Origin: Acaryochloris marina S15
GTDB taxonomy: Bacteria > Cyanobacteriota > Cyanobacteriia > Thermosynechococcales > Thermosynechococcaceae
Direction of reading: 5' to 3'
Assembly (NCBI RefSeq): GCF_018336915.1
Contig: NZ_CP064923.1
Location: 2,400,001 to 2,432,000, forward strand
DNA length: 32,000 bases
The notes beneath the pieces are model-generated. The model did no database searches. It saw only the letters and a program-made list of their open reading frames with translations, and had not been told where the DNA came from. Shown here piece after piece: positions 6,208 to 32,000 of this stretch. The translations under genes and the position numbers were made by a program. Position 1 is the stretch's first letter. The number at the start of each line of letters is the position of its first letter.

Positions 6208-9200
6208 TTGACAATGGATTCTCATAATAATCAAACCTTTGATATGAATTCCAATGAAATGCAAACTGCCGATACTTCGTTCTACGTTGTGGCGGTGGGT
6301 GCCTCCGCAGGTGGTCTTAAACCCCTAGAAGTATTCTTTGAAAATATACATCCTGAGTCAGGAGTGGCTTTTGTTGTCATTCAGCACTTGTCCCCTGACT
6401 TCAAAAGCTTAATGAATGAAATTTTGGGTCGTCGCACTAAACTGGCGATTCATATTGCGGAAGAAGGCATGGAACTTCAGTCCAATGCCATCTATTTGAT
6501 TCCAGCCGGTCAAAATATGATTGTTCGGGACCATTGTCTTTACCTCTATCCCCAAAAAAGAGATCACAAACCGAACTTTCCCATTAATTTATTTTTTCAA
6601 TCTTTGGCCGAAGAAATTGAAGAACGTGCCATCGGCATTGTTCTATCGGGCACGGGCAGTGATGGCACCCATGGACTCCAAAATATCCATGAAGGCGGGG
6701 GAATTACCCTAGTTCAAGACCCAGAAACGGCTGAATTTGACGGTATGCCCCATACGGCGATTAGTACTGGATGTATTGACTACATCGCGCCCCCCAAAGT
6801 GCTGGCCGAAATGATCAACGATTTGGGAAATCCGTCTCTTGTTCCCGCTGATTTAATTAAATTTAACGGTTTAGGGGCAGAAACCCATCAACTCCAAAAG
6901 ATAGTCGATTTGCTGGCTAAGCATGAAGGTATTGATTTTTCTCAATATAAGCTGTCAACCTTGGGCCGTCGAGTTGAGCGCCGCCGGCTATTGACCCAGC
7001 ACAACTCCTTACACGACTATGCCACCCTCTTAACTGATTCCGCCGATGAACGATCCCTGTTGCGTCGAGATTTACTGATTAATGTCACGCAATTTTTTCG
7101 GGATGGAGTGGTTTGGCAATATTTGAGAAATGAGATTCTGCGCCCCTTAATCAAAGACTTCCCCAAGAATGAAACCCTTAGGGTTTGGGTAACCGCCTGT
7201 GCCACGGGCGAAGAAGCCTATTCCATGGCGATTACAATTCGAGAATTGTGCGAGGAATTGGGGCGACAGATACCCACTAAGCTCTTTGCGACGGACCTCG
7301 ATCAGACTGCCCTGGATAAAGCCGCCCTGGGCGTATTTGACGAATCCATTGCAGATTACGTGGGGGAAGACCGGCTAAGAAAATATTTCACCTATGACAA
7401 CGGTCACTTCACGATTAAACGAATGTTGCGAGAGATGTTGATATTCTCGCCCCATGATTTGACTAAAAATGCCAGCCTGACCCGAATGAATGTGGTGACC
7501 TGTCGCAATGTGCTGATCTATATGCAGCCCATATTGCAGCAGTATGTATTGCGAAACTTACATTTTTCCCTCAATAAGGGCGGGATTCTCCTGTTGGGAA
7601 ATTCAGAAGATCTTGGTGAAGTCGAGCCTGAATTTGAGGTTCTCCATGCTAAAAATAAAATCTTTTCTAAAGTCAGAGAGCAACGACTGAATCTAAATTA
7701 TTTTCGCAATAAAACGATTGCGACCCCGGTGATGGCGGGGCGAGAGACTCGCCACCGTCGCCAAAGTGATCCGTTGCTAGAACAAGCCTTTAAAGCACAT
7801 CTGGAAGAGCTGAAAATCACTTGCCTGTTGTTGGATACCGACGAAAAACTGCTGCGGGTCTGTGCCGATCACTTAGATATTTTGCGCATCCCGGAAGGAC
7901 CAGCCACTGAGAGTGTCCGATCTTTGCTGCCGGATGTGATGCATTTGCCTTTTATATCGGCATTGAATCGGGTTTTGCGGGAAAAGCAGCCGGTCCAATT
8001 TAGTGGTCTCCTATGGGAGAAGAAGGGTGAACCGTTTGAATTAAAGTTTAAGGTCAGCCCTTGTCAACTCAATCCTCGGCAACAGCTGTTCTTAAAGCTG
8101 GAGATTTCTACGACGTCTCGAAAGTCCGTCTCTGTCCCCCAGCAAGAGTTGGAAAGCAGTACGGAAGTGATCAACCGAATTGAGCAGTTGGAGCTGGAAC
8201 TGTCCTATTCCCGTGAAAATCTGCAGGCTACGATTGAAGAACTTGAAAGTACAAATGAAGAACAGCAAGCCACTAACGAGGAACTGATTGCCTCCAACGA
8301 AGAGTTGCAAAGTACGAACGAAGAACTCCATGCGGTGAATGAAGAACTGTACACCGTCAATAACGAGCATCAATCCAAAATTAATGAACTCACGGCCCTG
8401 AGCAACGATATCGATAATCTGTTTCGGAGTACCGAAATTGGCGTGGTTTTTTTAGATCAAAGCTTGCAAGTTCGCAAATTTACCCCGGCAGCCAATCAAA
8501 TTTTTCAATTCCTGCCGAGCGATGTGGGGCGTCCCCTCAAGAACCTAGCCAGCAACGTTAATTACCCCTCTTTACTGGAGGTCTTGTCGGAAACGGCCCG
8601 GACAGGCAAAGTCACCGAGCAAGAAATTCATACGGATGAGAAACATTTGCTGATCCGCATCCATCCGTACCTCAATAATAGTGATGAGCAGCAAGGAGTG
8701 GTGATGTCGATTATCGATATCACGGCCACCCGTACGGCGCAGATTGAACTTCAATCTCAACGGATTAAAGCCAAACTGGCCCAAGATACCCTATCGGTTT
8801 TTCAAGAGCGCTATCAGCAGCTTTACCATGAAACCCCTGTGATGATGTACTCCATTGATGCACGAGGGGTAGTGGTAGAAGTGAGTAAATTTTGGCTTTC
8901 CAAATTAGGATATCCCCGTAAACAGATTTTGGGCGAGACGGTGGATGTTTTTCTCAATCCGGAGTCTCAAGAGCGGTTTCAAAAGCTCTGGCCGAGGTTT
9001 CTGGAATCTGGTTTGAGCATTGATGTACCGATGCGGATACTGACTAAATCGGGAGCAACGATTGATGTGTTGCAATCGATGATTGCGGAACGCGATGATC
9101 TAGGAGAGATTTCTCGGTGTTTAGTGGTTTCGGTAGATATTAGCCAACGTAAAAAGGCGGAAGCCGCAAGGCTAGAGAGTGAACAACGGTTTCGATCGAT

Positions 9201-10719
9201 GGCGGACCATGCCCCTGTACTGATCTGGGTGACGGATGCCCAAGGCCATTGCACCTATTTAAATGAAGAGTGGTTGAATTTTACAGGGGGCTCTCTAGAA
9301 CAAGCCCTAGAACAAGGTTGGGAAAGCGGGATTCACCCCGAGGATTTAGAGCATAATGTGACGGCTTATCGGCAGGCAGTGACAGAACGACAACCCTTTC
9401 GGTCTGAGTATCGTCGGTGCGATCGCACCGGTACCTTTAGTTGGTTACTCGATACAGCCAAGCCTCGATTCCTACCTACAGGAGAATTTGCGGGCATGAT
9501 TGGCTCCTGTTTTGATATCACCCTGCAGAAAAAAGCAGAGGAAGCTTTAGAATTGTCCAACTTCAATCTGGAAGTCGATTTAGCTGAGAAAGATGCCTCT
9601 CTCCATTCGATCGAAGGCAGTTTAGAAGAGAGTGAGACCCGATTTTACTCCCTAGCAGACAATGCCCCGGTTCTGATCTGGCTCAGTGATGAGCAAGGAA
9701 ACTGTACCTATGTCAACCAAACCTGGCAAACTTTGACCGGTCAACCTTTGGGTACTCAGCTAGGATCAGGATGGCTGAATACTATTCATCCTGAGGACCG
9801 AGCCCGAGTACAATCTATATTTCAAGACAGCAGTGTCCAGCAACAACCTTTCGAACTGGAGTTTCAGCAAGCAAAGGCAGATGGAGTCTATCGTTGGATA
9901 TTGGCAACGGGGATACCCAGACTAGCTGCAGGTCAATTTTCAGGACTGATTTGTTCCTGCATGGACATTTCTGACATCAAACATTCTCAAAAAAGATTAG
10001 AACAAGCGATTCAAGAACTACAACGATCGAATCAAGAGCTAGAGCAGTTTGCTTATATCGCATCCCATGATCTACGGGAACCTCTGCGTAAAATCCAAAG
10101 TTTTGCTGAATTGTTACAAGACGATTTGGCACCCCAGTTAGACGAGAATCAAAGCCGCTACTTTGGGTACATCATGTCAGGGGCAAAGCGCATGCAACAG
10201 CTTATTCAGGATGTGTTGCAATACTCTCGGGTTGGACGAAGTGACAAAGCGCTAGAGTCTGTAGATTTGAACCATGTGCTTGAAATAGTGCAGTCTGATT
10301 TAAGCCTAGCCATTGAAGAACATCAGGTGGTTATTGAGTATGACGCATTGCCCATGATTTATGCGCACATCGTAGAGGTGACTCAAGTTATAGAAAATCT
10401 AATCAGTAATGCGATTAAATTTCGCTCTGAAATTCTGCCTCGAATTCAGATCACAGCAGAGGAGCAATCTGAGTATTGGGCAATCTCTATCACAGATAAC
10501 GGTATTGGGATTTCTGAGGAATCCTTAGATCGTATTTTTGTGATGTTCCAGCGATTACATCATTCCAACAAGTATCCTGGGACGGGAATTGGTTTAGCAT
10601 TGTGTCGCAAAGTGATCGAAAGTTATGGCGGAACCATTTCTTGCACGTCTACCCTAGGTGGAGGATCAACCTTTCTGATCAAACTTCCTCTACAGCCCAT
10701 GGTGCCGATATTACAGTAG
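6208..10719 (+). CDS. CheB methylesterase / CheR methyltransferase / multi-PAS / histidine kinase fusion protein
   Basis: 1503 aa. The ORF opens with TTG at 6208, but the ATG at 6214 is the more likely start. The CheB-like N-terminus has [14 protein letters not shown] and [10 protein letters not shown]. The CheR SAM-binding region has [24 protein letters not shown] heptad coiled coil follows, then at least three PAS/PAC modules (e.g. IHPEDL, IHPEDR). The protein ends with the HisKA box [16 protein letters not shown] and HATPase_c boxes [15 protein letters not shown] and [12 protein letters not shown]. Confidence 0.9.
8251..8376 (+). repeat. Six tandem 21-nt (heptad) units encoding (S/T/V)NEEL-x-x, inside the CheB-CheR CDS
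   Basis: The translated units are [35 protein letters not shown] and VNNEHQS. This is coding coiled-coil periodicity, not an independent element. Confidence 0.85.
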
Positions 10720-10733
10720 TCTCTGAAGTAACA

Positions 10734-11330
10734 ATGAAACTAGCTGAAGATTCTCATTATCTCTGTACGGAACTGTATGAACTGATCCAAAATGATCCCT
10801 CCGTCTTTAGTTTCTTGCAGGAAGCGACCCTAGATGGAGTGTGGTATTGGGATTTGGTTAACCCAGAACATGAGTGGATGAGTCCCGAGTTTTGGCTTTT
10901 CCTAGGGTATTCTCCGGTCAAAAAACAGCACCTAGCATCAGAGTGGAAAGACTTAATCCACCCTGATGATTTAGCCGTGGCCTGTAAAAATCTAGAAAAG
11001 CATCTTGCCAATCCCGCACACCCGTACGATCAAATCGTTCGGTATACGAAAAAAAATGGAAAGATGGTGTGGGTCCGTTGTCGAGGAATCGCTATTCGAG
11101 ATCAGTTTGACCAGCCGATTCGGATGTTAGGAGCCCATGTAGATGTTACTAAACTTGTAGAAGTAACTGAACTGCTAGAAATTCAACTCCAAAGACTAGA
11201 TGCCTGCAAAATGCGACTTTCTTTAGAACAGCAAAAAGTCAGCCAGTTAGCCTATGAGAATGTAAAGTTGGAAGGGCAATTGCAACAAAAGGAAAAAGAA
11301 ATTCAGGCCTTGAAGCAACGGGTACTCTAG
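10734..11330 (+). CDS. Small PAS-domain protein with C-terminal coiled coil
   Basis: The ORF track begins at 10602 and overlaps the upstream gene. The ATG at 10734, 14 nt after the upstream stop, gives MKLAEDSHY.. (198 aa). PAS/PAC features are DGVWYWDL, WMSPEFWLFLGY, LIHPDDL and VWVRCRGIAIRD. A heptad-rich tail ends in LEGQLQQKEKEIQALKQRV. Confidence 0.8.
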   Translation: MKLAEDSHYLCTELYELIQNDPSVFSFLQEATLDGVWYWDLVNPEHEWMSPEFWLFLGYSPVKKQHLASEWKDLIHPDDLAVACKNLEKHLANPAHPYDQIVRYTKKNGKMVWVRCRGIAIRDQFDQPIRMLGAHVDVTKLVEVTELLEIQLQRLDACKMRLSLEQQKVSQLAYENVKLEGQLQQKEKEIQALKQRVL

Positions 11331-11493
11331 TTTCGTCGTACTCAATGAATGATTGAACTGATCTTGTGGGACTACTCATTTCGGATTTTATTTCATGGGT
11401 AAATTTGCTACCCTAAAAAATTTGGCTTACATCATGATCCATTTTCGGCATTTTTGCCCAGGTTAGTTTCAAATTCAGATCCAATTATTCTAG

Positions 11494-11522
11494 AGATCTC
11501 TTACGCAGAGATCTATTTTTTC
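11494..11522 (+). terminator. Candidate intrinsic terminator
   Basis: The stem agatctct (11494-11501) pairs with agagatct (11507-11514) across the loop tacgc, followed by attttttc. It lies about 165 nt after the PAS/coiled-coil gene. The stem is short and AT-rich, so support is only moderate. Confidence 0.4.
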
Positions 11523-11656
11523 ATGTTTGTAAAATAGAATTATGAGGGGAATTCTCAAGGCGATGCGATGCAATTTACTGCTTTTTCTTTTTTAATTATT
11601 CATATTAGTTTAAATGGCCAATATTTTAGGTCATTTAGATAAAAAAACGAAATGAG

Positions 11657-12495
11657 TTGAATGCAAAGGTTTCCTCCGAGTCTGTGCCTTCGCAGAGTAC
11701 AATGGCAGTCGTCTTGAATCGTTCAGGCTATCGACTACGGACCATCCTCCCAGCCAAGCCAAAAAACTCCCAGAAACAGATGTCATTTTTACCAACCTCA
11801 CACTCAAAGACCAGAAAGAGCATGACGGTACAGTTAAGTGATTGAGCATGAATTGCAAAGCCACGATTAAGCTCAGCAACTCATCACGGCTGGGAAAAAC
11901 CCGAACACAGACGAAGGCCTCTGAATATGACATAAATGAAGGAGAAAAATATCTCTCTTGTGGCGTCTTAGATGAGGAAATTGGAGGGTTACACATCAAA
12001 TTTGGTAACTCCTACAAAAAAGACGACTTTATGGTCGATAACTTACAAGACTGGTGGAATATAATCACGCCAACAGAGCAGCAAAACATCAAGCTGATCT
12101 TGATCAAGGTGAATAACGGTTCTGAGAATAGTGGGATATACACTCAGTTCCTCAATCGACTGGTGACATTGAGTGACCGCGTTGGCATCTCCATTCAACT
12201 ACTTTGCTATCCGCTTGATCACAGCAAGTACAACCCTATTGAGCGATGTTGGGGCATTCTGGAACAGCATTGGCATGACATCTTGTTGACCGATGTCGAA
12301 ACCCTGTTGGGTTGGGCTAGTCGCATGACTTGCGTTGTGACCTTGACAGAGGAGACCTATAAAAGAGGAGTTTCACTCACTCAAAAAGCAATGAGCGGGA
12401 TTGAGAAACGATTGGAGAGAATCTGCAATTACCTAAAGAGGATATTTTCATTCACCCAATTTAGTAAGGGACTGCTTTTCAGGAAATCACCTTAG
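11657..12495 (+). pseudogene. Decayed DDE transposase, 5'-truncated with a frameshift and an in-frame stop; resembles the cyanobacterial ISAzo13-like (PF07592) group from memory
   Basis: Two ORF pieces (11657-11845 and 11842-12495) read as one protein once two lesions are allowed. The first is a missing A in the run at 11761-11766: ..GYRLRTILPAKPK | KLPETDVIFTNL... The second is TGA at 11839-11841, read through as ..DGTVK*LSMNCKATI... The C-terminal motif HSKYNPIERCWGILEQHW is transposase-like. The piece is far shorter than a full transposase, and I saw no terminal inverted repeats. Confidence 0.6.
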
Positions 12496-17227: not shown

Positions 17228-18583
17228 TTGAATATGTTGAAGTCTAGAAGAAAGACGACCGATGAGGGGTTTGCTTTACCTATTGCCATCGGCTTTGGGT
17301 TAATCATGGTGCTGGTCGCCCTGACTTTAAGCATTAAATCCAGGGACGATCAAGTCTCAGCTGTTTCTCAAAAGCAAACAACCGCAAGTGCCACTGTTGC
17401 TGAAGGTGGAATATCTCGAACCCTTGGGTTCTTAAATCATAACTATCACATGCTGCTGAGATTGAATTATGACCCAAACAGTCTCTTAGGATCGGATAGT
17501 CCTGATGAATGGTCATCTCTTGCTAAACCCCCTCCCTGTTTCACCGGGGTGAATAATCTTTTGACTGGCAAGATCCCGACTACGGCATCAGCCAACACCT
17601 ATACCGTTGAAGCTTATCGCTACAGTGATCCAGATGGAATATCGAATTCCGGGGATGAAACTGGAACAGTAATTGTCAAGGGACATCCACCGAATTCATC
17701 TGCAGTATCGCGAATTCAGCAGACGATGAATATCTCTCAATCTTCTTCCCTGGCCAGCTTCCCAGGATTGATGGCTCAAGATATTACATTAGGGAATAAT
17801 GACGTCTTGGGGGCAATTTCAGGAAATGTAATTTGCACAGATGCGATTAACTGTGCAGTGCCTGTGAGTGAATGTGTCAATGGTCAACCTACTGATAATG
17901 GTTTACGCGATGCCATTGATGCTCTCAATAATGGTGTAGTCCAGGGGCAAATTTACGTTCGTGAAGTGATATGGCCTCCTGTTCCTGTTATTCCTTCAGG
18001 TGCAATTGCTATATCCATTAGTGGAGCAACTAGCTTTCCTCGCACCGGAGATACAGTTGGTGCTGATGGTGCTTATCACTATGAAGTCAATGACATCACT
18101 CTAAGCGGTAGTGATCAGGTGACGGTTGATACTACCTCAGCACCCATTTATTTTTATGTCACGGGTGATATCGATATGAGCGGTCAAGCCACATTGGCCC
18201 ACACCTGTTCAGGCACCGCCCATAATTGTGGCACCTATGGGAGTGGTTTAGGTAGCCCAGAGCGGTTCCGTATTTATGGCAATGCTGATGATGGGGATAG
18301 CTTCTCTGATCAGGATTTCACATTCAATGGCGGGGCAACCGCCACCAATGTTTTCATTCATGCCCCAGATACTCGTATGGGAATTAATGGCGGCAGTAGC
18401 AATCCGGATATACGGGGTGCCATTTGGGTCAGAGAGTGGGATGGCTCAAGCTCCAACACTGCTGAAATTACGGTGCCCAATGCTATGAAGCAACTGCTAA
18501 CAGATTCTGGCGTTGTGGTTACCTCCGCGTCCCATAAAACGTCTGCAGCAACCAGTTGGAATCGCTTAGAAGCAACTCCGTAA
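17228..18583 (+). CDS. PilX-like type IV pilus minor component, with a large C-terminal domain
   Basis: The ORF opens with TTG at 17228, but the ATG at 17234 is the likely start. The N-terminus KSRRKTTDEGFALPIAIGFGLIMVLVALTLS is a pilin-like hydrophobic helix. It has Ile rather than Glu at +5, as in PilX/GspK-type tip subunits. The C-terminal region of roughly 250 aa is Gly/Ser/Thr-rich, with IYFYVTGDIDMSGQATL and NVFIHAPDTRMGINGGS..IRGAIWV. I associate this pattern with PilX/TadG-like proteins. Confidence 0.7.
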   Translation: MNMLKSRRKTTDEGFALPIAIGFGLIMVLVALTLSIKSRDDQVSAVSQKQTTASATVAEGGISRTLGFLNHNYHMLLRLNYDPNSLLGSDSPDEWSSLAKPPPCFTGVNNLLTGKIPTTASANTYTVEAYRYSDPDGISNSGDETGTVIVKGHPPNSSAVSRIQQTMNISQSSSLASFPGLMAQDITLGNNDVLGAISGNVICTDAINCAVPVSECVNGQPTDNGLRDAIDALNNGVVQGQIYVREVIWPPVPVIPSGAIAISISGATSFPRTGDTVGADGAYHYEVNDITLSGSDQVTVDTTSAPIYFYVTGDIDMSGQATLAHTCSGTAHNCGTYGSGLGSPERFRIYGNADDGDSFSDQDFTFNGGATATNVFIHAPDTRMGINGGSSNPDIRGAIWVREWDGSSSNTAEITVPNAMKQLLTDSGVVVTSASHKTSAATSWNRLEATP

Positions 18584-18594
18584 TAAGCGACCCT

Positions 18595-19386
18595 ATGGGT
18601 CTATTTATAGAATTCTCATCCCTTAGGCTCACAGCTAGGAAGACTTCAGTGATCATAAGAACACACAAAAAATCTCATGAACAAGGATTTACCTTAGTTG
18701 AAGTTGCAGTTGCCATGTTGGTTATGGCAATTTTTATTGGGACTGCAATGCAAGGTTTGGTTCTCTCAACAACATTCAAGGTACGCGCCAAACAGTTGAC
18801 TGCAGCCAATAACTGGATTCAGCAAGACTTAGAAGATGTCAAAGCTGTAGCGAGTGATGTGGGCCAAGTGCCCCTCACTTCAGCATTGCTTTATGCTGAT
18901 GCACTTCCAGGGGATACAACAATTCAGGTTACTCAACTAGGATTTAGGCCAGGCGATTCTATTGTGATTGGTACAGAGACGAACAGTAACGTCATAACCA
19001 ATCTGCAAATTCAAACTGACCCCATCACTGGCACAAATTATTTAGAAGTCACCTTACTCAATCCTTTAGCCTATAACCAAAAAGCGGACTCCACAGCCCT
19101 CGTATTGGCAAGATGCCGATCTCATCTGGCTACCGGAGGTTTCGCCGCCTATCTTGATGAATCGCTACCTGCAGTCAAATCAGAAATGGACAACAGTAGC
19201 ACGCCTAAATCCGGGCAAAAAACTATCTTAGGCCAAGAATTCACCCTGCAAAGGACAACCTCCGTTCGGCCAGCAGAGCCCTATCAAATTTTGGAAGTTA
19301 CTTATAACGTCACTGATGAAAATTTGGAGACAGTAGCCCAAGCCAATTCAGAGGTGGTACCTAATGCGTTCTTTGCCTGTCCATAG
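18595..19386 (+). CDS. Type IV minor pilin, PilV-like (prepilin N-terminal cleavage/methylation motif)
   Basis: The motif EQG|FTLVEVAVAMLVMAIFIGTAMQGL has Glu at +5. The ATG at 18595 is one start option. The GTG at 18649 is preceded by AGGAAG 6 nt upstream and gives a 13-aa basic leader, so it is equally plausible. The TTG at 18556 in the track overlaps the upstream gene. Confidence 0.75.
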   Translation: MGLFIEFSSLRLTARKTSVIIRTHKKSHEQGFTLVEVAVAMLVMAIFIGTAMQGLVLSTTFKVRAKQLTAANNWIQQDLEDVKAVASDVGQVPLTSALLYADALPGDTTIQVTQLGFRPGDSIVIGTETNSNVITNLQIQTDPITGTNYLEVTLLNPLAYNQKADSTALVLARCRSHLATGGFAAYLDESLPAVKSEMDNSSTPKSGQKTILGQEFTLQRTTSVRPAEPYQILEVTYNVTDENLETVAQANSEVVPNAFFACP

Positions 19387-25066: not shown

Positions 25067-25235
25067 TGGCATAGAGTATTGCCAAAAGCCCAAAAACTGC
25101 ATTAATGGGAGCTTTCGAAGAAGCTACAGAGTAAGCGAGTTAGGCGAGGCTACAATTTTTATGCAAGAGGTGTGGGCTGGCCCCATAACCTGCTTTCGGT
25201 TTCTCTTGGTATATATTTTGAGCTTTTTTCAAAAA

Positions 25236-25308
25236 CGAGCATGGAGGGATTCGAACCCCCGACCCTCAGAACCGGAATCTGATGCTCTATCCACTGAGCT
25301 ACATGCCC
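25236..25308 (-). tRNA. tRNA-Arg (anticodon CCG)
   Basis: The minus-strand 73 nt GGGCATG-TA-GCTC-AGTGGATA-GAGC-A-TCAGA-TTCCGGT-TCTGA-GGGTC-GGGGG-TTCGAAT-CCCTC-CATGCTC-G folds as a canonical cloverleaf. The acceptor stem has 7 bp including one G-U pair, and the T-loop is TTCGAAT. CCA is not encoded. Confidence 0.9.
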
Positions 25309-25384
25309 CCATTGGGGTAGATTACAAAATCTACCCGCCAGTATAGCGTTTATGGGTTGTTGCCATAACCACAAGACTTGAATT

Positions 25385-26494
25385 TTAGCCGAATCCTTTG
25401 CTGCGGCTGCTGGCAACGGTGGCTAAGCAGTTTTCGATTTGCGATCGCAACTTGTCATGATCTAAATCCTGGCCAATGAGTACCAGCTGATTTTTGGGCT
25501 CTCCTCTCCAGTCCTCATCATCGAGGGAGAAGCGCTTACCACTTAAGTGAAAGACGTGACGCTTTTCGCTTTCATCGAACCACAGAATTCCTTTGGCTCG
25601 GAAAACGTTGAGGGGTAGTTGTTCATCCAGGAACTTTTGAAACTTGCGCACTGAGAAGGGGCGATCGCTCTGGAATGAGAGGGATGTAAACCCATCGTTA
25701 TCTAAGTGATGGGAGTGATCATGATCATGCTCGCAATTGCTGTGGTCATGGTCGTGATGATCATGGTCATGATGGTCGTGGCTATGGTCATCACTGTGGC
25801 CGTGGTCATGGCCGTGTTCGTGGTCGTGCTCATCATCAAAGTACTTATCGGATTCAAATAGCCCGACACTCAAAATCAGGGGTAGGGAAACCTGACTTTT
25901 CGTGGTTCTAATGATCCGAGCGCCTTCTCGCATTTCCCGAACGCGCACTTCTAGCAGATCTAAATCCGCTTCATCCACCAGATCAGCTTTGTTAAGCAAG
26001 ATAATATCGCCATAGGCAATCTGACTTTGGGCCGCTTCGCTATTAAACAGATCCAAACTAAAGTTTTCAGAATCGACCATGGTGACAATTGAATCTAAGC
26101 GAGTCACATCTCGCAAGTCAGTGCCCAAAAAAGTCAAAGCAACAGGTAAAGGATCAGCTAACCCAGTAGTTTCGACCACCAGATAATCAATCTTGTCGGA
26201 CCGCTCCAGAACCTTATAAACGGCTTCTACCAAATCGTTGTTGATGGTGCAGCAGATACAGCCATTGCTCAGCTCTACCATGTCTTCGCCAGTGGAGATC
26301 AGGAGATCGTTATCAATGCCAATCTCGCCAAATTCATTGACCAAAACAGCCGTTTTTAGACCTTCCTGATTGGAAAGAATGTGATTCAATAGCGTCGTTT
26401 TGCCGCTGCCCAAAAAGCCCGTGATAATGGTGACGGGTAACCCGCGCTTTTCAGCCTTCAAGGTCTGAGTGGGGTCCGAAGTTGTTGTGGTCAT
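25385..26494 (-). CDS. COG0523 (CobW/HypB/UreG-type) G3E GTPase metallochaperone with a His/Asp-rich insert
   Basis: 369 aa. The Walker A motif is GFLGSGKTTLL, the metal-binding motif is GCICCT, and the NKxD-like motif is LLNKADL. A 44-aa tract reads DDEHDHEHGHDHGHSDDHSHDHHDHDHHDHDHSNCEHDHDHSHH. The CobW_C-like tail has FRAKGILWF. Confidence 0.88.
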   Translation of the reverse strand: MTTTTSDPTQTLKAEKRGLPVTIITGFLGSGKTTLLNHILSNQEGLKTAVLVNEFGEIGIDNDLLISTGEDMVELSNGCICCTINNDLVEAVYKVLERSDKIDYLVVETTGLADPLPVALTFLGTDLRDVTRLDSIVTMVDSENFSLDLFNSEAAQSQIAYGDIILLNKADLVDEADLDLLEVRVREMREGARIIRTTKSQVSLPLILSVGLFESDKYFDDEHDHEHGHDHGHSDDHSHDHHDHDHHDHDHSNCEHDHDHSHHLDNDGFTSLSFQSDRPFSVRKFQKFLDEQLPLNVFRAKGILWFDESEKRHVFHLSGKRFSLDDEDWRGEPKNQLVLIGQDLDHDKLRSQIENCLATVASSRSKGFG

Positions 26495-26593
26495 AATCTT
26501 GCTCAGAGATGCAGCCGCTGAAGAATATACAAAATAGGGTAGCCCCTACCCCTCATACTAAAGGATGGCACTCCGGGAAAGTGCTAAATTTTT

Positions 26594-27865
26594 CTAAGGC
26601 CGTTCAGTCACTCGATCTGGAATCACGGCCACCGACTGCCAAACCGGTAACAAGTCGTTTTGTAAGACTTCTAACCAAGTGGGCCAATGCTGATCGATAT
26701 GGGCAAGGGTGGCCTGTTTCATCTGGGCTAGCTGATCTGGGTCATGATACAGGGTTGCGATCGCACCCGCCCACGTCTCTGGCAGATCATCTTCAATGAC
26801 GACGCCATCTTCCCCAGACGCCTGCACTGACTGGTACGCTCCGCCATGACTGGAAATAATCACAGGCAACCCAGATGCCTTTGCTTCCACAATCACATTG
26901 CCGATGGTCTCCGTTTGGGAGGGGAACACAAACAGATCCGCACTAGCAAATATGGGACCTAGCTGATCATGGTCAATCGTACCTGTTAGGGTCACATGGT
27001 CTCCAAGGATAGCCTGCACCGCTTGATCGCTACTGCCCTGACCGACGACGAGGGCATGAACGGGTAGACCCTGATCGAGAAGAATTTTGACCGCTTGGGC
27101 AAAGGTGAGGATATTTTTGCAGGCATCTAAGCGCCCCACAAATAACAGCAGAAATTTTCCAGGAGGTAGGCTATAGGTTTGTTCTAGCCCAGGGCGATCG
27201 CGATGGTGGGGATGAAATAAATCCTTATCGATGCCTCGACGGAGGTGAGAAATGTGTGACTGGGGCAAAACGCCATTCACTACCCCAAAGTCAGAGGGCT
27301 GAGCCGTCAACACATGTGCACAAGACTGCCAGTAGCGCTTTTGCCGAGCCACCATCAACTGCTTATACCGCCGGGGGATTTGCAGCTGTTGGGAGAGTAA
27401 ATGGTTGAACCATCCCTGGCCAAACAGTTTTTCCAGGGCCTGTTCCGTATAGATGCGGGAATATTCCGGTGTATCGGTATGAATCGAAGCGATCAGGGGT
27501 TTGCCCTGTTGCTGGCAATATCGTTTGGCCGTCTTCCCAAAAGTGAACTGAGGATGGGTGATATGGACAATATCCAGCTGATCTAAATAGGGAATCAGGG
27601 AAGGATTCGAGGGGGCAATATCTGTATGACCGGGCACATCCTTGAGGAAGGTCAGACGCTCAGTACTAAACCGAGGGGGATGTAAGACATAGCGAACGTT
27701 GGGCGCGAGTTCGATGTCCCGTTCTTGATCACCCAAGAAATGCAGACTTAACTCTAGCTCTTCCGGCAACGTGGCGGCAGCTTTGGCAAAGGATTCCCAG
27801 CATTTCACATGCCCACCTGCGGCTTGGTGCCATCTCAAGTCTATAAAGACCCCAACCGAAACCAT
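26594..27865 (-). CDS. Glycosyltransferase, GT4-like (GT-B fold)
   Basis: 423 aa. The C-terminal half has the retaining GT-B pattern LLFVGRLDACKNI, ADLFVFPSQTETIGNVIVEAKASGLPVI and GEDGVVIE. It is transcribed divergently from the hpnJ-like gene. Confidence 0.75.
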   Translation of the reverse strand: MVSVGVFIDLRWHQAAGGHVKCWESFAKAAATLPEELELSLHFLGDQERDIELAPNVRYVLHPPRFSTERLTFLKDVPGHTDIAPSNPSLIPYLDQLDIVHITHPQFTFGKTAKRYCQQQGKPLIASIHTDTPEYSRIYTEQALEKLFGQGWFNHLLSQQLQIPRRYKQLMVARQKRYWQSCAHVLTAQPSDFGVVNGVLPQSHISHLRRGIDKDLFHPHHRDRPGLEQTYSLPPGKFLLLFVGRLDACKNILTFAQAVKILLDQGLPVHALVVGQGSSDQAVQAILGDHVTLTGTIDHDQLGPIFASADLFVFPSQTETIGNVIVEAKASGLPVIISSHGGAYQSVQASGEDGVVIEDDLPETWAGAIATLYHDPDQLAQMKQATLAHIDQHWPTWLEVLQNDLLPVWQSVAVIPDRVTERP

Positions 27866-28193
27866 ATCTCATCCTTTAACTGATCGTGATCACAGAATAT
27901 CGAGAGGCATTCCCCAATAATGACGTTGCTTACGGACTGAATAAATGGCTGCAAACCGAGCCAGAATGCAATTTAAAACTAACGTTTGGCGCTTCAAGGA
28001 GCAGAACTGCCATAATATCTATCCCGACTGGATAAATCAACTGCAACCGATCCAGGATCGTCCACCAGGTAAAGCTGGTTTTTGATACGCTATGGTTGCT
28101 TCAGTGATCTGGACGCTTGAGGGATGGACCTCAATTGATGTTTCTAACCGAAGAAACTTCCCTGTGACTGCATCTTAAATGAGGAGTGAAACC

Positions 28194-29630
28194 ATGCAGA
28201 AAACCCTATTTTTGAGTCCCCCCTCTTTTGATGGATTTGACGGTGGGGCTGGGGCTCGATATCAGGCCAAGCGAGAAATTACCTCTTTTTGGTATCCCAC
28301 CTGGCTTGCCCAACCGGCAGCCTTGGTACCCGGAAGTAAGCTGATTGACGCGCCTCCCCATGAACAAACTGTTGAGGATGTGCTCAAGGTCGCCAAAGAT
28401 TATGATCTGGTGATTATGCATACCAGCACTCCCTCTTTAGCCAACGATGTTAAATGTGCGGAAGAGATTAAGGCCCAAAAGCCTGGTACTCAGGTAGGTT
28501 TTATTGGCGCTCACGTCGCAGTTTTACCAGAAGAAACCCTGCGGGATAACCCCATCATTGATTTTGTCTGTCGCAGCGAATTTGACTATACATGCAAAGA
28601 TGTGGCCGAAGGCAAACCCCTTTCAGAGATTAAGGGGCTGAGCTATCGTGACCCGGATAATCAAATTCAACATAATCCAGAACGGGACTTAATCCACGAT
28701 TGGGATGCGATGCCCAGTGTTCTTCCCGTTTATAATCGCGACCTGGATATCAAAAAGTATTTCATCGGCTATCTCCTTCATCCCTACATTTCCTTTTATA
28801 CCGGGCGGGGCTGCCCCGCTAAATGCTCCTTCTGTCTGTGGCCCCAAACCATCGGTGGCCATAATTATCGAGCCAAAAGTCCCGAGGCCGTGGGCAAAGA
28901 AATGGAGCAGGCCAAATCTCTGTTTGGGGATACGGTGCGGGAATATATGTTTGATGATGATACGTTCACGATTGATAAACCCCGTGCGATCGCAATTAGT
29001 GAACATCTCAAACGCCTTAAGCTCACCTGGAGCTGCAACGCTCGGGCCAACCTCGACTACGACACCCTCAAGCAATTGCGAGACAACGGACTCCGCCTAT
29101 TGCTGGTAGGTTTCGAGTCTGGGAATCAGGACGTTCTAGACGGCATCAACAAGGGCATCAAACTGGAAGTGGCCCGTAAGTTTATGGCCAACTGCCGCAA
29201 ACTCGGTATCACCGTCCACGGCACCTTTATTATTGGCCTTCCCAACGAAAGTCAAGAAACCATCGAAGAAACGATTCGGTTTGCCTGTGAGGTGAGCCCT
29301 CATACCATTCAAGTTTCGATTGCAGCTCCCTATCCCGGTACAGCCCTTTATGCCCAGGCTCAAGAGAATAACTGGTTTAGCGATACGTCTCTATTAGCAG
29401 AGTCAGGGATTCAAACCTCCACCTTGGCCTATCCCAACCTCTCTAGTGCAGCGATTGAGGATGCAGTAGAACGCATGTATCGTCGCTTCTATTTCCGGCC
29501 CCAAGCCATTATTCCGATTGTGGGTGAAATGCTGGGAGATCCGCAAATGTTGGTCCGCCGCCTACGGGAAGGGCGGGAGTTCTTTGCTTATTTGAAGGAG
29601 CGACAAACCGGCGCAGCAGCTAAAGCTTAA
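28194..29630 (+). CDS. hpnJ: B12-binding-domain radical SAM protein, HpnJ-like (hopanoid side-chain cyclitol ether formation)
   Basis: The ATG at 28194 is preceded by GAGGAG, while the track ORF starts at 28179. The N-terminus MQKTLFLSPPSFDGFDGGAGARYQAKREITSFWYPTWLAQPAA matches my recollection of HpnJ. The radical SAM cluster motif is GRGCPAKCSFCLW (CxxxCxxC). Two genes downstream lies an HpnK-like YdjC gene. Confidence 0.75.
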   Translation: MQKTLFLSPPSFDGFDGGAGARYQAKREITSFWYPTWLAQPAALVPGSKLIDAPPHEQTVEDVLKVAKDYDLVIMHTSTPSLANDVKCAEEIKAQKPGTQVGFIGAHVAVLPEETLRDNPIIDFVCRSEFDYTCKDVAEGKPLSEIKGLSYRDPDNQIQHNPERDLIHDWDAMPSVLPVYNRDLDIKKYFIGYLLHPYISFYTGRGCPAKCSFCLWPQTIGGHNYRAKSPEAVGKEMEQAKSLFGDTVREYMFDDDTFTIDKPRAIAISEHLKRLKLTWSCNARANLDYDTLKQLRDNGLRLLLVGFESGNQDVLDGINKGIKLEVARKFMANCRKLGITVHGTFIIGLPNESQETIEETIRFACEVSPHTIQVSIAAPYPGTALYAQAQENNWFSDTSLLAESGIQTSTLAYPNLSSAAIEDAVERMYRRFYFRPQAIIPIVGEMLGDPQMLVRRLREGREFFAYLKERQTGAAAKA

Positions 29631-29752
29631 GGTTGTCCCCTGGAGGGTTGAGTGGCCTTCTCCATAGAACTTCCCTCCCGCCCAGGAGGGGGGAGTTAGG
29701 GATTTTAGAAACAATGAAATTCAACGTCAGTTAGGGAACCATCTAATACACA

Positions 29753-30640
29753 TTGAAATCATTGGGGGTTATGCAAGTGATGATTAATTTGGGTAGCAGA
29801 GAACATAAGCAACTATTCTGTCGCAGCTTTCTGGACACTTCTTTAGATTACGAACCCGAGAATTTACCCTGGCCGAACCTCGATTCAGTCTCCTTAAAGC
29901 GATTGCGGGGAATCCCTTTTTGGCGGGAAGCGCTTTTAACGGAGAGTGAAGCCGGGGTGATGGTGAGTGCTTTTGCCGAAACGATTTCTGATCCCCTGAT
30001 CAAAGAAGCCGTTGCCCTCCAAGGTCGAGAAGAGCGTCGCCATGCCCGTTTATTACAGCATCTGATTGAGCGGTATGACATTGAAGTGTCGCCTTTACCT
30101 GAAATCACCGTTCCCGAACAGATGGAAACGGCATTCACTGATTTTGGTTTTGGGGAATGTCTGGATTCCTACTTTGCCTTTGGCATGTTTGATTTAGCCC
30201 GCCAAGCCCAGTACATGCCGGAGAGCATGTTCAAAATTTTCGATCCGATTTTGGATGAAGAAGCCCGCCATATTGTTTTCTTCGTGAATTGGGTGACCTA
30301 TCTGCAGATCCAACAGGGCTGGAACCTAGAAGAACTACGCAGTATGAGAGCGTTCTGGCACTATGGCAAGGCCTTGAAAACTTTAATTCAAGCCTTTGGC
30401 AGCAATGGGAATCAGCAGGAAGGGAAACCTTTTACCGCCTCTGAAGCAGGACATTTTATGGACGATTTGACGGCCAATCAGTTCTTTAAGACCTGCTTGG
30501 ATGCCAACCACCAACGCATGGAACGGTTTGATGAGCAATTGCTTCAGCCTCTATTGATGCCTCGGTTATCCAAACTGGCCTTGACCTGTCTGCGTCTATG
30601 GCCCAGCCGCAATCCAGTCCCATCGTTACAGGGAGGCTAA
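29753..30640 (+). CDS. Ferritin-like di-iron carboxylate protein of unknown function
   Basis: 295 aa from TTG 29753, or 289 aa from the more conventional ATG at 29771. Two ExxH motifs are present, REERRHARLL and DEEARHIVFF. Each is preceded by a candidate helix glutamate, in LTESEAGV and FGFGECLD. This is the 4-helix-bundle di-iron ligand pattern. Confidence 0.65.
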   Translation: MKSLGVMQVMINLGSREHKQLFCRSFLDTSLDYEPENLPWPNLDSVSLKRLRGIPFWREALLTESEAGVMVSAFAETISDPLIKEAVALQGREERRHARLLQHLIERYDIEVSPLPEITVPEQMETAFTDFGFGECLDSYFAFGMFDLARQAQYMPESMFKIFDPILDEEARHIVFFVNWVTYLQIQQGWNLEELRSMRAFWHYGKALKTLIQAFGSNGNQQEGKPFTASEAGHFMDDLTANQFFKTCLDANHQRMERFDEQLLQPLLMPRLSKLALTCLRLWPSRNPVPSLQGG

Positions 30641-30670
30641 GATGCCAAATGAGATTAGGGTAGGGTTGCC

Positions 30671-31546
30671 ATGACATCCCCACGATATGTAATTGTCAAT
30701 GGCGATGACTTTGGGTTTTCCCACGGGGTCAATGAAGGTATTATTCAGGCCCATACCGAAGGCATTCTCACCAGTACCAGCTTGATGGTGACGGGGGAGG
30801 CAGTTGAAGAAGCGGTTGACCTGGCCAAACAGCATCCGAGTCTGGGGGTGGGTCTCCATGTCGTTTTGGGCTGTGGCAAAGCCGCCCTGCCGCCTGATCA
30901 AATTCCTCATCTAGTGGATGAGCAGGGGCGGTTTCCAGATAATCCGGCCCAGGCAGGTTGGCGATACTACTTCAATCAGGCCGCTCGGCAAGAGCTGTAT
31001 CAAGAAATTGAGGCCCAACTGCAGCATTTCCTCGCCACAGGCTTGCCCCTATCCCATGTGGATGGGCATTTGCACCATCATGCTAATCCCGCAGTCCTGG
31101 ACGTCTTGATGGCTTTGGCACCGAAATATAACATCCCCATTATCCGGCTTCCCCATGAGGAGTTGACCTATACCTTGAAAGCAGATTCCCAGGGCTGGCT
31201 AGGGAAGGGACTGGGCTGGTCCGTGTTTCGGCTGCTGCGCCATCATGGGGAGCAGGTGCTGACCGCCCAAGGGATACGGTATGCTGAGCGGGTCTACGGG
31301 CTATTGCAATCCGGTTCAGTGACAGAGTCCTATCTGTTGGGGTTAATTCCCCAAATTCAGGCCAATGTCATAGAGCTATATGCCCATCCTGCGATCCCAT
31401 ATCCCCACGAACCGATCAATGGGCCTGAAGGAGCGGGAGAGCGGGAGCTGGCGGCGTTGCTGAGTCAGTCTGTGAAAGCCCAGCTTCAATCTAGTGGATT
31501 TCAATTAACCAATTATCCTGAACTCATCGCTTCAGCTGCATTTTGA
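30671..31546 (+). CDS. hpnK: YdjC-family deacetylase, HpnK-like
   Basis: 291 aa. YdjC signatures are VIVNGDDFGFSHGVNEGIIQAHTEGILTSTSLMV and LSHVDGHLHHH. It sits in a cluster with an HpnJ-like gene. Confidence 0.75.
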   Translation: MTSPRYVIVNGDDFGFSHGVNEGIIQAHTEGILTSTSLMVTGEAVEEAVDLAKQHPSLGVGLHVVLGCGKAALPPDQIPHLVDEQGRFPDNPAQAGWRYYFNQAARQELYQEIEAQLQHFLATGLPLSHVDGHLHHHANPAVLDVLMALAPKYNIPIIRLPHEELTYTLKADSQGWLGKGLGWSVFRLLRHHGEQVLTAQGIRYAERVYGLLQSGSVTESYLLGLIPQIQANVIELYAHPAIPYPHEPINGPEGAGERELAALLSQSVKAQLQSSGFQLTNYPELIASAAF

Positions 31547-32000
31547 TCAATTTCCTACTTATTGTCTTCCTCATCTCCACTCAAGTGCTCGGTGATATTT
31601 GGCTGAGTCGGGGAATGAAAGTATTTGGTGAGATCACGTCTTACCATCCCGAGGCATTAGGGCAGCTAGTCGGCTATTTATTCACCAGCCCTTGGATTGG
31701 GATGGGGGTCGTCACCCTCACCATCTCTATGCTCATTTATCTCGTTTCCCTCACCCGACTAGATATGAGCTTCGTGCTGCCCATGCACGCTTTTAGCTAT
31801 GTTCTCAATGCCCTCATGGCTTGGCTGATCTTAAAGGAGCCGGTCTCTTTGGCCCGTTGGTTAGCGGCGATTTTTATCTCCTTGGGGGTGTTTATTGTGG
31901 GCTGGAGTAAGCGCATTGACGATCGCAAGGCTCAGTCACCGCAAGAATCCGATCCCAATATAAAATCCTCCTTGCTGCTGCTGCTTCCCTTGAGTTTCTC
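31543..32000 (+). CDS. EamA/DMT-like small membrane protein (3' end runs off the window)
   Basis: This ORF is not in the supplied track because it is open at the window edge. The TTG at 31543 overlaps the hpnK stop (TTGA). Translation gives LINFLLIVFLISSTQVLGDIWLSRGMK...YLVSLTRLDMSFVLPMHAFSYVLNALMAWLILKEPVSLARWLAAIFISLGVFIVGW. This resembles 4-TM EamA-like proteins. The start codon is uncertain. Confidence 0.6.
   Translation, partial: MINFLLIVFLISTQVLGDIWLSRGMKVFGEITSYHPEALGQLVGYLFTSPWIGMGVVTLTISMLIYLVSLTRLDMSFVLPMHAFSYVLNALMAWLILKEPVSLARWLAAIFISLGVFIVGWSKRIDDRKAQSPQESDPNIKSSLLLLLPLSF

Follow-up and report, generated by a model that had tools for sequence, protein, structure and literature searches.

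The stretch analysed here (the window) comprises 32,000 nucleotides of the Acaryochloris marina S15 genome (RefSeq assembly GCF_018336915.1, contig NZ_CP064923.1, positions 2,400,001 to 2,432,000 of the forward strand). The gene in question is the open reading frame (ORF) at 29753-30640 on the plus strand, which lies between the hopanoid genes hpnJ and hpnK and whose product is called FLP, for a ferritin-like or R2-like di-metal carboxylate protein. With a probability of a little more than one half (about 0.55), judged from its sequence, its modelled fold and its gene neighbourhood, FLP would be an O2-dependent di-metal oxidase that tailors C35 hopanoids. The original prediction had named the gene a candidate hopanoid-tailoring oxygenase, and this reading is supported both by the ligand and fold evidence and by the conserved hpn neighbourhood. 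Enzymes of this kind are known; the FLP family is uncharacterised, has no curated model, and its pathway context was not reported before. FLP is a strong candidate for a missing oxygen-dependent step in hopanoid biosynthesis.

The FLP gene, its metal ligands and its predicted fold

The genes of the locus and the codons of the putative metal ligands are as follows.

28179-29630, plus strand: hpnJ, B12-binding radical S-adenosylmethionine (SAM) enzyme of bacteriohopanetetrol (BHT) cyclitol ether formation; TIGR03471 at 795 bits against a cutoff of 578, with Pfam Radical_SAM and B12-binding
29753-30640, plus strand: FLP, maximal ORF of 295 aa from TTG; no curated family reached
29942-29944, plus strand: codon of E64, first-helix carboxylate ligand on helix 57-75; invariant in 119 of 119 homologues
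30029-30043, plus strand: EERRH (E93 E94 R95 R96 H97), first ExxH motif, residues 93-97; E93, E94, R96 and H97 invariant in 119 of 119
30155-30157, plus strand: codon of E135 within GECLD, third-helix carboxylate ligand on helix 124-151; invariant in 119 of 119
30257-30271, plus strand: EEARH (E169 E170 A171 R172 H173), second ExxH motif, residues 169-173; E169, E170, R172 and H173 invariant in 119 of 119
30671-31546, plus strand: hpnK, YdjC-family deacetylase of N-acetylglucosaminyl-BHT; TIGR03473 at 276 bits against a cutoff of 233, Pfam YdjC at 252 bits
31543-32000, plus strand: ArnE/ArnF-like EamA membrane protein, 5' part only, running off the window; its start overlaps the hpnK stop as TTGA

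The flanking genes, first described as hpnJ-like and hpnK-like, both score above the curated cutoffs, and HpnJ is also BchE-like (127 bits on the BchE model TIGR02026). The earlier description of one strand with short gaps and a TTGA overlap of the last pair was accurate: hpnJ, FLP, hpnK and the EamA-like ORF are co-directional, with 149 bp between hpnJ and FLP (start at 29780), 30 bp between FLP and hpnK, and the overlap at 31543. The hpnJ start at 28194, given in the original prediction, is a plausible alternative. As for the last gene, the EamA similarity stood (27.6 bits for the partial ORF of the window and 37.2 bits for a full orthologue of 277 aa), and the product is described more precisely as an ArnE/ArnF-like tandem protein. 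The window matches A. marina MBIC11017 at 87% DNA identity only from 25208 onward, and in that strain the operon order is hpnJ-FLP-hpnK-arnEF-hpnI. The true start of FLP is likely ATG 29780 (286 aa) or ATG 29771 (289 aa), because its homologues begin with MKLGS or MKIGS; the start at 29771 gives the same length as a 91%-identical homologue (P0001).

The spacer between hpnJ and FLP was searched for a regulatory element. Promoter-like sites numbered 5 against 4.6 expected, which is no excess over shuffles. Terminator-like sites numbered 11 against 5.2 +/- 2.5 in shuffles, about twice the mean, and none lay in the spacer, the closest being at 29558-29576 within the 3' end of hpnJ. The fold z of the spacer was -1.1.

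The ORF had been reported to carry EERRH, EEARH and two upstream helix glutamates; all of these are present, the glutamates being E64 and E135. None of the six ligands (E64, E94xxH97, E135 and E170xxH173) varies in 16 of 16 and in 119 of 119 full-length homologues, and A171 within the second motif is kept in at least 98% of the 119 aligned. E64 precedes E94xxH97 by 30 residues and E135 precedes E170xxH173 by 35 residues, so that FLP carries the E...ExxH...E...ExxH pattern, with a spacing of about 30-38 residues, by which the ferritin-like (R2-like) superfamily is recognised.

A check of the fold by profile searches and structure prediction, suggested beforehand, gave a helical bundle. Both AlphaFold2 models are all-helical, the first built from 16 sequences (pLDDT 81) and the second from 135 sequences (pLDDT 89, pTM 0.86). 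According to DSSP the ligands sit on four long core helices: E64 on 57-75, E94 and H97 on 81-107, E135 on 124-151, and E170 and H173 on 164-187. On these helices the mean pLDDT of 10-residue blocks is 86-97 in the first model and 92-98 in the second. When both models were compared with the PDB by Foldseek, the top 50 matches listed were all R2lox, ribonucleotide reductase (RNR) R2/NrdB/NrdF, acyl-ACP (acyl carrier protein) desaturase or ADO-like, that is, R2-like di-metal oxidases; these matches are distant (probability about 1.0, TM 0.36-0.53, E 2e-3 to 5e-2). The sequence and the models are best explained if FLP is an intact protein of the ferritin-like (R2-like) di-metal carboxylate oxidases, in a family that is uncharacterised and essentially cyanobacterial.

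FLP stayed below the cutoff of every Pfam and NCBIfam model, and the following families were tried and rejected. Rubrerythrin (PF02915) gave 20.2 bits against 22.8 (E 8e-4) over residues 59-113 only, and no rubredoxin or other domain was found in Pfam or NCBIfam. The encapsulin ferritin models EncB_fam and TIGR04535 gave 26.4 bits against 90 and 19.8 against 125 (E 5.5e-6) over about 55 residues; a ferritin or EncFtn storage role was rejected on size and architecture. MiaE (PF06175) gave 13.1 bits against 27. The Mg-protoporphyrin monomethyl ester cyclase AcsF (NF010172) gave 13 bits against 391 over 34 residues (E 0.04). For acyl-ACP desaturase and ADO there was no FA_desaturase_2 or Ald_deCOase match at E <= 0.1 in Pfam, and the resemblance is at fold level only. 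RNR R2 was rejected on the hopanoid context, the lack of a Pfam Ribonuc_red_sm match and the lack of the radical tyrosine. We take this tyrosine to lie four residues past the first ExxH histidine (E. coli Y122), and since the corresponding position 101 of FLP is Ile, Leu or Val in 116 of 119 homologues, FLP is not an R2.

R2lox (PDB 5dcs, 4hr0, 6i92) is the best or near-best structural match (TM about 0.5, probability 1.0). It resembles FLP in its length of about 285 aa, in the E/ExxH/E/ExxH set and in having no radical tyrosine at the R2 position, and its pocket binds a long-chain lipid. The two differ in that no sequence relationship is detectable (Foldseek E 6e-3 to 1.5e-2) and in that R2lox has no known pathway context whereas FLP lies in hpn clusters; R2lox also has a Mn/Fe cofactor and a Tyr-Val cross-link, and the comparison with FLP is one of sequence and predicted fold. 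The acyl-ACP desaturases (PDB 1afr, 2uw1) are also among the top structural matches and are di-iron four-helix bundles which oxidise unactivated lipid C-H bonds with O2 and ferredoxin. However, their TM values are only 0.36-0.43, they are about 60 residues longer than FLP, FLP has no Pfam FA_desaturase_2 match, and their substrate is presented on ACP whereas no carrier protein is encoded at the FLP locus. The only match of a PDB sequence-profile search was the MiaE-like chain 5ux1 (E 0.28), in which both ExxH motifs align, EERRH of FLP to ELEH and EEARH to EARH. The tRNA hydroxylase MiaE and the MiaE-like/ADO-like proteins (PDB 5ux1, 5ux2) are small, soluble di-iron enzymes that hydroxylate unactivated C-H bonds, but the similarity in sequence is slight, they act on an unrelated substrate, and FLP is longer by about 100 residues at its C-terminus.

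Linkage to hopanoid genes and distribution of FLP

The forward survey covered 80 genome loci with 10-kb flanks, analysed by tblastn and ORF clustering, of which 54 had at least 3 kb on both sides (well-flanked loci). The co-occurrence with hpnJ and hpnK across cyanobacteria, which had been proposed as a check, was found: hpnH, hpnI, hpnJ or hpnK lies within 10 kb of FLP in 45 of the 54 well-flanked loci, from many cyanobacterial orders, and on the same strand and less than 500 bp away there is hpnJ in 38 loci and hpnK in 30. The neighbours could be identified above curated cutoffs (HpnI 374 bits against 310, HpnH 555 bits, HpnA 488 bits). FLP is therefore co-localised with validated hpn genes in distant genomes, as is expected of a member of the hpn cluster. 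Also found repeatedly near FLP are a squalene-synthase-like gene, an HpnP-type radical SAM protein (B12, radical SAM and DUF4070 domains) and a 277-aa ArnE/ArnF-like tandem EamA protein.

One recurring architecture is hpnJ-FLP-hpnK(-arnEF-hpnI), and the orders J-FLP-K, FLP-J-K, I-FLP-J-K and K-J-FLP were all seen. The adjacency of hpnJ, FLP and hpnK is far above chance, because it recurs in dozens of distantly related cyanobacteria. Linked loci belong to Acaryochloris, Nostocales, Chroococcales, Pleurocapsales, Leptolyngbyales, Chroococcidiopsis and Coleofasciculaceae, and since the linkage is kept at an FLP identity of 55-65% across orders and in several gene orders, it is maintained and not merely inherited. 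In a second architecture, present in five loci including those of Tolypothrix tenuis PCC 7101 and Nostoc carneum NIES-2107, hpnH, hpnA and an RND permease gene are divergent from FLP, which is followed by a co-directional HpnG-like phosphorylase gene, with no hpnI, hpnJ or hpnK within 10 kb (L056:4747-11656, L079:4926-11672, L068, L066 and L028). FLP stands next to hpnG here and is therefore tied to the genes of C35 side-chain hopanoids generally, not only to the cyclitol-ether module.

A di-iron protein of some other pathway could stand at these loci by chance. In agreement with this, neither a hopanoid nor an arnEF-like gene occurs within 10 kb of FLP in 7 of the 54 well-flanked loci, where FLP is flanked by unrelated genes, for example those of sucrose synthase, GUN4, a response regulator and UreD. 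Divergent relatives (P0147, P0123, P0129, P0125 and P0135) likewise lie on short contigs, on which no hpn or informative neighbours were found. Inheritance alone is, however, insufficient to explain the linkage described above, and an origin outside hopanoid metabolism is strongly disfavoured and very improbable.

The homologue search returned 1140 matches. The family is tight and has many members; it forms 888 clusters at 50% identity in the representatives library and has relatives in 315 of 185,579 GTDB species genomes. Every homologue with a protein name is labelled cyanobacterial. Among the 80 listed loci several are labelled only as uncultured bacterium, and two short contigs (L024 and L049) carry the labels of metagenome-assembled genomes of 'Candidatus Sericytochromatia' and Acetobacteraceae; both contain a cyanobacterial-type FLP (59% identity), L049 also has hpnK, and they are probably mis-binned cyanobacterial DNA. 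Most of the named carriers within Nostocales are terrestrial or subaerial, among them Nostoc commune, Scytonema, Brasilonema, Stigonema, Mastigocladus, Hapalosiphon and Chlorogloeopsis ULAP01/02. The names Dolichospermum, Aphanizomenon and N. punctiforme are missing from the Nostocales-level matches, which is weak evidence of absence.

A second paralogue (FLP2), 45-46% identical to the protein of the window and with all six ligands kept (EEAAH, DETRH), was found in six loci (L035:11746-12618, L036:11735-12607, L055:10878-11750, L022:4397-5269, L040:10957-11820 and L064:7299-8183). It stands in the same operon, as hpnJ-FLP1-hpnK-FLP2 or as a FLP1-FLP2 tandem, in Stigonema-type and other Nostocales loci, and would fit two successive or regio-distinct oxidations. 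Outside the core family, 14 of 41 divergent representatives lack several of the six ligands while keeping the length and the other conserved blocks, and are apparently non-catalytic, to judge from their sequences (P0135, P0138, P0146, P0155, P0160, P0162, P0172, P0175, P0189, P0195, P0197, P0222, P0237 and P0248). No hpn genes were seen in the few genomic contexts that could be retrieved for them.

The reverse survey covered 80 metagenome loci with a cyanobacterial-type HpnJ (76-96% identity), 63 of them with flanks of at least 1.5 kb. FLP lies within 6 kb in only 15 of these 63, and many have hpnK straight after hpnJ. The most informative comparison is an Acaryochloris-like marine metagenome contig (L086) whose HpnJ is 96% identical in protein. 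Its synteny with the window extends over 25214-27896, 28078-29630 and 30692-31997 (cobW-like, GT4, hpnJ, hpnK and arnEF), and positions 29631-30691, exactly FLP, are replaced by an 86-bp spacer (L086:7453-7538). This is a clean presence/absence polymorphism of a single gene, and FLP is an accessory, not a universal, part of cyanobacterial hpnJ/K clusters.

These data also bear on a protective or repair role, in which FLP would have no lipid substrate and would serve the O2-sensitive radical-SAM enzymes HpnJ, HpnH and HpnP as a rubrerythrin-like peroxidase, an iron store or an Fe-S repair factor. The Rubrerythrin and encapsulin ferritin matches are the sole hints at sequence-family level, a radical-SAM gene is near FLP in both architectures, and the family occurs only in cyanobacteria, of which many are subaerial and exposed to high light. 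Against this, both matches are under their curated cutoffs and cover one helix pair without a rubredoxin domain, the 286 aa with extra helices resemble substrate-oxidising R2-like proteins and not 24-mer ferritins or the short EncFtn, and in cyanobacteria most hpnJ loci have no FLP nearby. We consider such a role improbable.

Substrate, reaction and pathway context

Bacteriohopanepolyols (BHPs) and their fossil hopanes belong to the most widely used biomarkers of bacteria, and the genes for much of the BHP side-chain diversity, namely pentols, hexols, unsaturated forms and composite head groups, are still unknown (PMC12583986). In the literature searched, no paper was found which links hpnJ or other hopanoid (hpn) genes with a ferritin-like or di-iron protein, and none on the FLP family. 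The original prediction had stated that the published HpnI/J/K pathway holds no di-iron enzyme and that the enzymes of pentol and hexol formation and of desaturation were unassigned; the literature agrees with the former, including papers of 2025-26, and with the latter (PMC12583986). A survey of 2025 describes the BHpentol and BHhexol genes as unknown, with no candidates near alphaproteobacterial hpn clusters, and hopanoid desaturation as unresolved, with a membrane 'sterol desaturase' as sole candidate (PMC12583986).

The published tailoring genes (the methylases HpnP and HpnR, the aminotransferase HpnO, HpnI/J/K, the candidate 'sterol desaturase' Desat/HpnX, and HpnL/M/S/T) lie within hpn clusters as FLP does, and hpnP, hpnR and hpnO share its accessory distribution. 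None of them is a ferritin-like di-iron protein, however, and the proposed desaturases are of the membrane 'sterol desaturase' family (PMC12583986). A synteny study of 2025-26 found HpnL/M/S/T, none of which is ferritin-like, HpnS and HpnT being MlaA-like and lipocalin-like transport factors. It used domain annotations near shc, and a family lacking a Pfam model, such as FLP, would therefore escape it; the FLP family shows that synteny surveys by domain annotation overlook such families.

As a hopanoid-tailoring oxidase FLP would bind two metals, either Fe/Fe or Mn/Fe. Its electrons would probably come from a general donor, for example ferredoxin, as the cluster contains no gene for a reductase. 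FLP may then activate O2 and oxidise an unactivated C-H bond of a C35 extended hopanoid. The most likely reaction would be hydroxylation of the side chain at C-30 or C-31, giving pentol- or hexol-type BHPs, free or in their glucosaminyl or cyclitol-ether forms; ring desaturation, or oxidation of the amino-sugar or cyclitol head group, is less likely. Side-chain hydroxylation is favoured because FLP is co-operonic with hpnG in one architecture, because FLP2 could account for a second hydroxyl or another regiochemistry, and because the 30-hydroxy isomer is cyanobacteria-specific like the family itself, the 30,32,33,34,35-pentol having been reported from cyanobacteria only (PMC5642901). The C-30 hydroxyl is not adjacent to the tetrol, so the 32-oxo/enol route to pentols (PMC12583986) would miss C-30 and a strong C-H-activating chemistry would presumably be needed. 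The specific assignment of FLP as a side-chain hydroxylase is possible, and we put it forward tentatively.

Several points weigh against the hopanoid-tailoring reading or its preferred reaction. The structural matches are distant, and the reaction type is therefore not transferable from the relatives; the seven well-flanked loci without hopanoid genes also count here. The earlier suggestion that FLP makes pentol and hexol cyclitol ethers holds in so far as it is a candidate for them, and fails as a general explanation, since alphaproteobacteria make these compounds too (PMC12583986) and the named FLP homologues are all cyanobacterial. A weak point is the absence of the N. punctiforme name among the Nostocales-level matches. 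This species makes pentol, and its genus is known for pentols. Finally, the placement between hpnJ and hpnK could equally fit a head-group substrate.

Such a substrate would make FLP an enzyme that hydroxylates or oxidises a sugar carbon, or N-oxygenates the amine, of the glucosamine or cyclitol formed by HpnI/K/J, giving a composite head group specific to cyanobacteria. FLP is most often placed between hpnJ and hpnK, whose products both act on the head group, and hpnI and the gene of a putative flippase of ArnE/F type belong to this operon as well. In Scytolyngbya the main hpnH-J-K-I cluster is 200 kb away from FLP, which is accompanied by a further copy of hpnK, and a radical SAM protein of sugar type (best match BlsE-like) is encoded less than 3 kb from FLP in six loci. 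The five FLP loci with hpnH, hpnA and hpnG are, however, without hpnI/J/K within 10 kb, and we know of no oxidised amino-cyclitol BHP that would need such an oxidase. The lipid substrates of superfamily relatives (R2lox, the desaturases) argue neither way, and we regard oxidation of the head group as unlikely.

FLP could also be an O2-dependent counterpart or helper of HpnJ, providing an aerobic route to, or a step in, formation of the cyclitol ring, by analogy with AcsF and BchE. A paper of 2026 counts HpnJ among the non-methylating cobalamin-dependent radical-SAM ring-forming enzymes that lack mechanistic in vitro characterisation, and describes AcsF as the aerobic, di-iron equivalent of BchE (PMC13598231). 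FLP occurs only in oxygenic phototrophs, usually abuts the gene of the BchE-like HpnJ and has the weak AcsF-family match already given. That match, however, is far below its cutoff, and FLP nearly always accompanies hpnJ and does not replace it. The conversion of glucosamine to the cyclitol by HpnJ is redox-neutral and needs no net oxidation. In Burkholderia hpnI/J/K suffice, according to Schmerk 2015 as cited in PMC12583986 and PMC13598231. In a comparison of the named FLP-bearing strains with one culture study, BHT cyclitol ether is the main BHP of Dolichospermum and Aphanizomenon (PMC5642901), and the lack of a named FLP homologue from either genus, the count of 15 in 63 hpnJ loci and the close Acaryochloris relative L086 together argue that FLP is not needed for the plain cyclitol ether. 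A role as counterpart of HpnJ is accordingly hardly probable.

The broader idea which joins these two, namely an O2-using di-metal enzyme acting on the amino-sugar or cyclitol head group, alongside HpnJ or as its aerobic alternative, so that the hopanoid pathway would have its own counterpart of the AcsF/BchE duality, is quite unlikely. If true, it would represent a new type of ferritin-like oxidase reaction, the remodelling of a glycolipid or formation of a carbocycle on it.

If FLP is an O2-dependent tailoring enzyme restricted to cyanobacteria, it would be the first gene marker for such a modification, linking a lipid structure to oxygen and to cyanobacteria. An oxygenase in the hopanoid pathway would not astonish a specialist, and the value lies in making an acknowledged open question testable with one gene. 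The question can be tested directly because related strains differ cleanly in having or lacking this gene.

Neighbouring genes and the rest of the window

The ArnE/ArnF-like gene has no counterpart in the published hopanoid pathway. Of the 80 genome loci, 13 have it within the hpn cluster, as do several of the metagenome loci with hpnJ, and its best NCBIfam matches, both under cutoff, are the undecaprenyl phosphate-aminoarabinose flippase subunits ArnE and ArnF. The set of the GT2 protein HpnI, the deacetylase HpnK and this protein parallels ArnC, ArnD and ArnE/F, and by this analogy it may flip glucosaminyl-BHT or its product across the membrane.

The radical SAM protein of about 372 aa is uncharacterised, and in four of its six loci hpn genes are also present. 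Among the NCBIfam models it matches the sugar decarboxylase BlsE best (70-78 bits, far under cutoff), and it is a possible further head-group tailoring enzyme. In Scytolyngbya HA4215-MV1 the two hpnK paralogues are on one 830-kb scaffold, about 200 kb apart. The coordinates of these genes are given below.

L001:11791-12624 and L004:1768-2601: full-length ArnE/ArnF-like orthologues, 277 aa
L042:8060-9178, L043:5696-6844, L060:12478-13626, L062:7837-8955, L072:13641-14735 and L075:12071-13186: radical SAM protein of about 372 aa
Scytolyngbya L019: FLP at 10001-10852, second hpnK copy at 11411-12262
Scytolyngbya L116: main cluster with hpnH, hpnJ, hpnK and hpnI

In the window, synteny with A. marina MBIC11017 begins at a tRNA-Arg(CCG) gene (25236-25308, minus strand). 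Upstream of hpnJ and further towards the beginning of the window the following features were recorded.

26594-27865, minus strand: GT4 glycosyltransferase, divergent from hpnJ
25385-26494, minus strand: CobW/ZigA-like GTPase with a long His/Asp-rich insert
17228-19386: pilin-like proteins with N-methyl motif
11842-12495: fragment of an ISAZ013-type transposase
6208-10719: CheB-CheR-PAS-kinase fusion, 1503 aa
2952-5495, minus strand: bacteriophytochrome with HWE kinase

The GT4 gene beside hpnJ is conserved only in Acaryochloris-type loci. Positions 1-23200 are unrelated to hopanoids and also include a PAS histidine kinase with a receiver, a SulP transporter and SelO.

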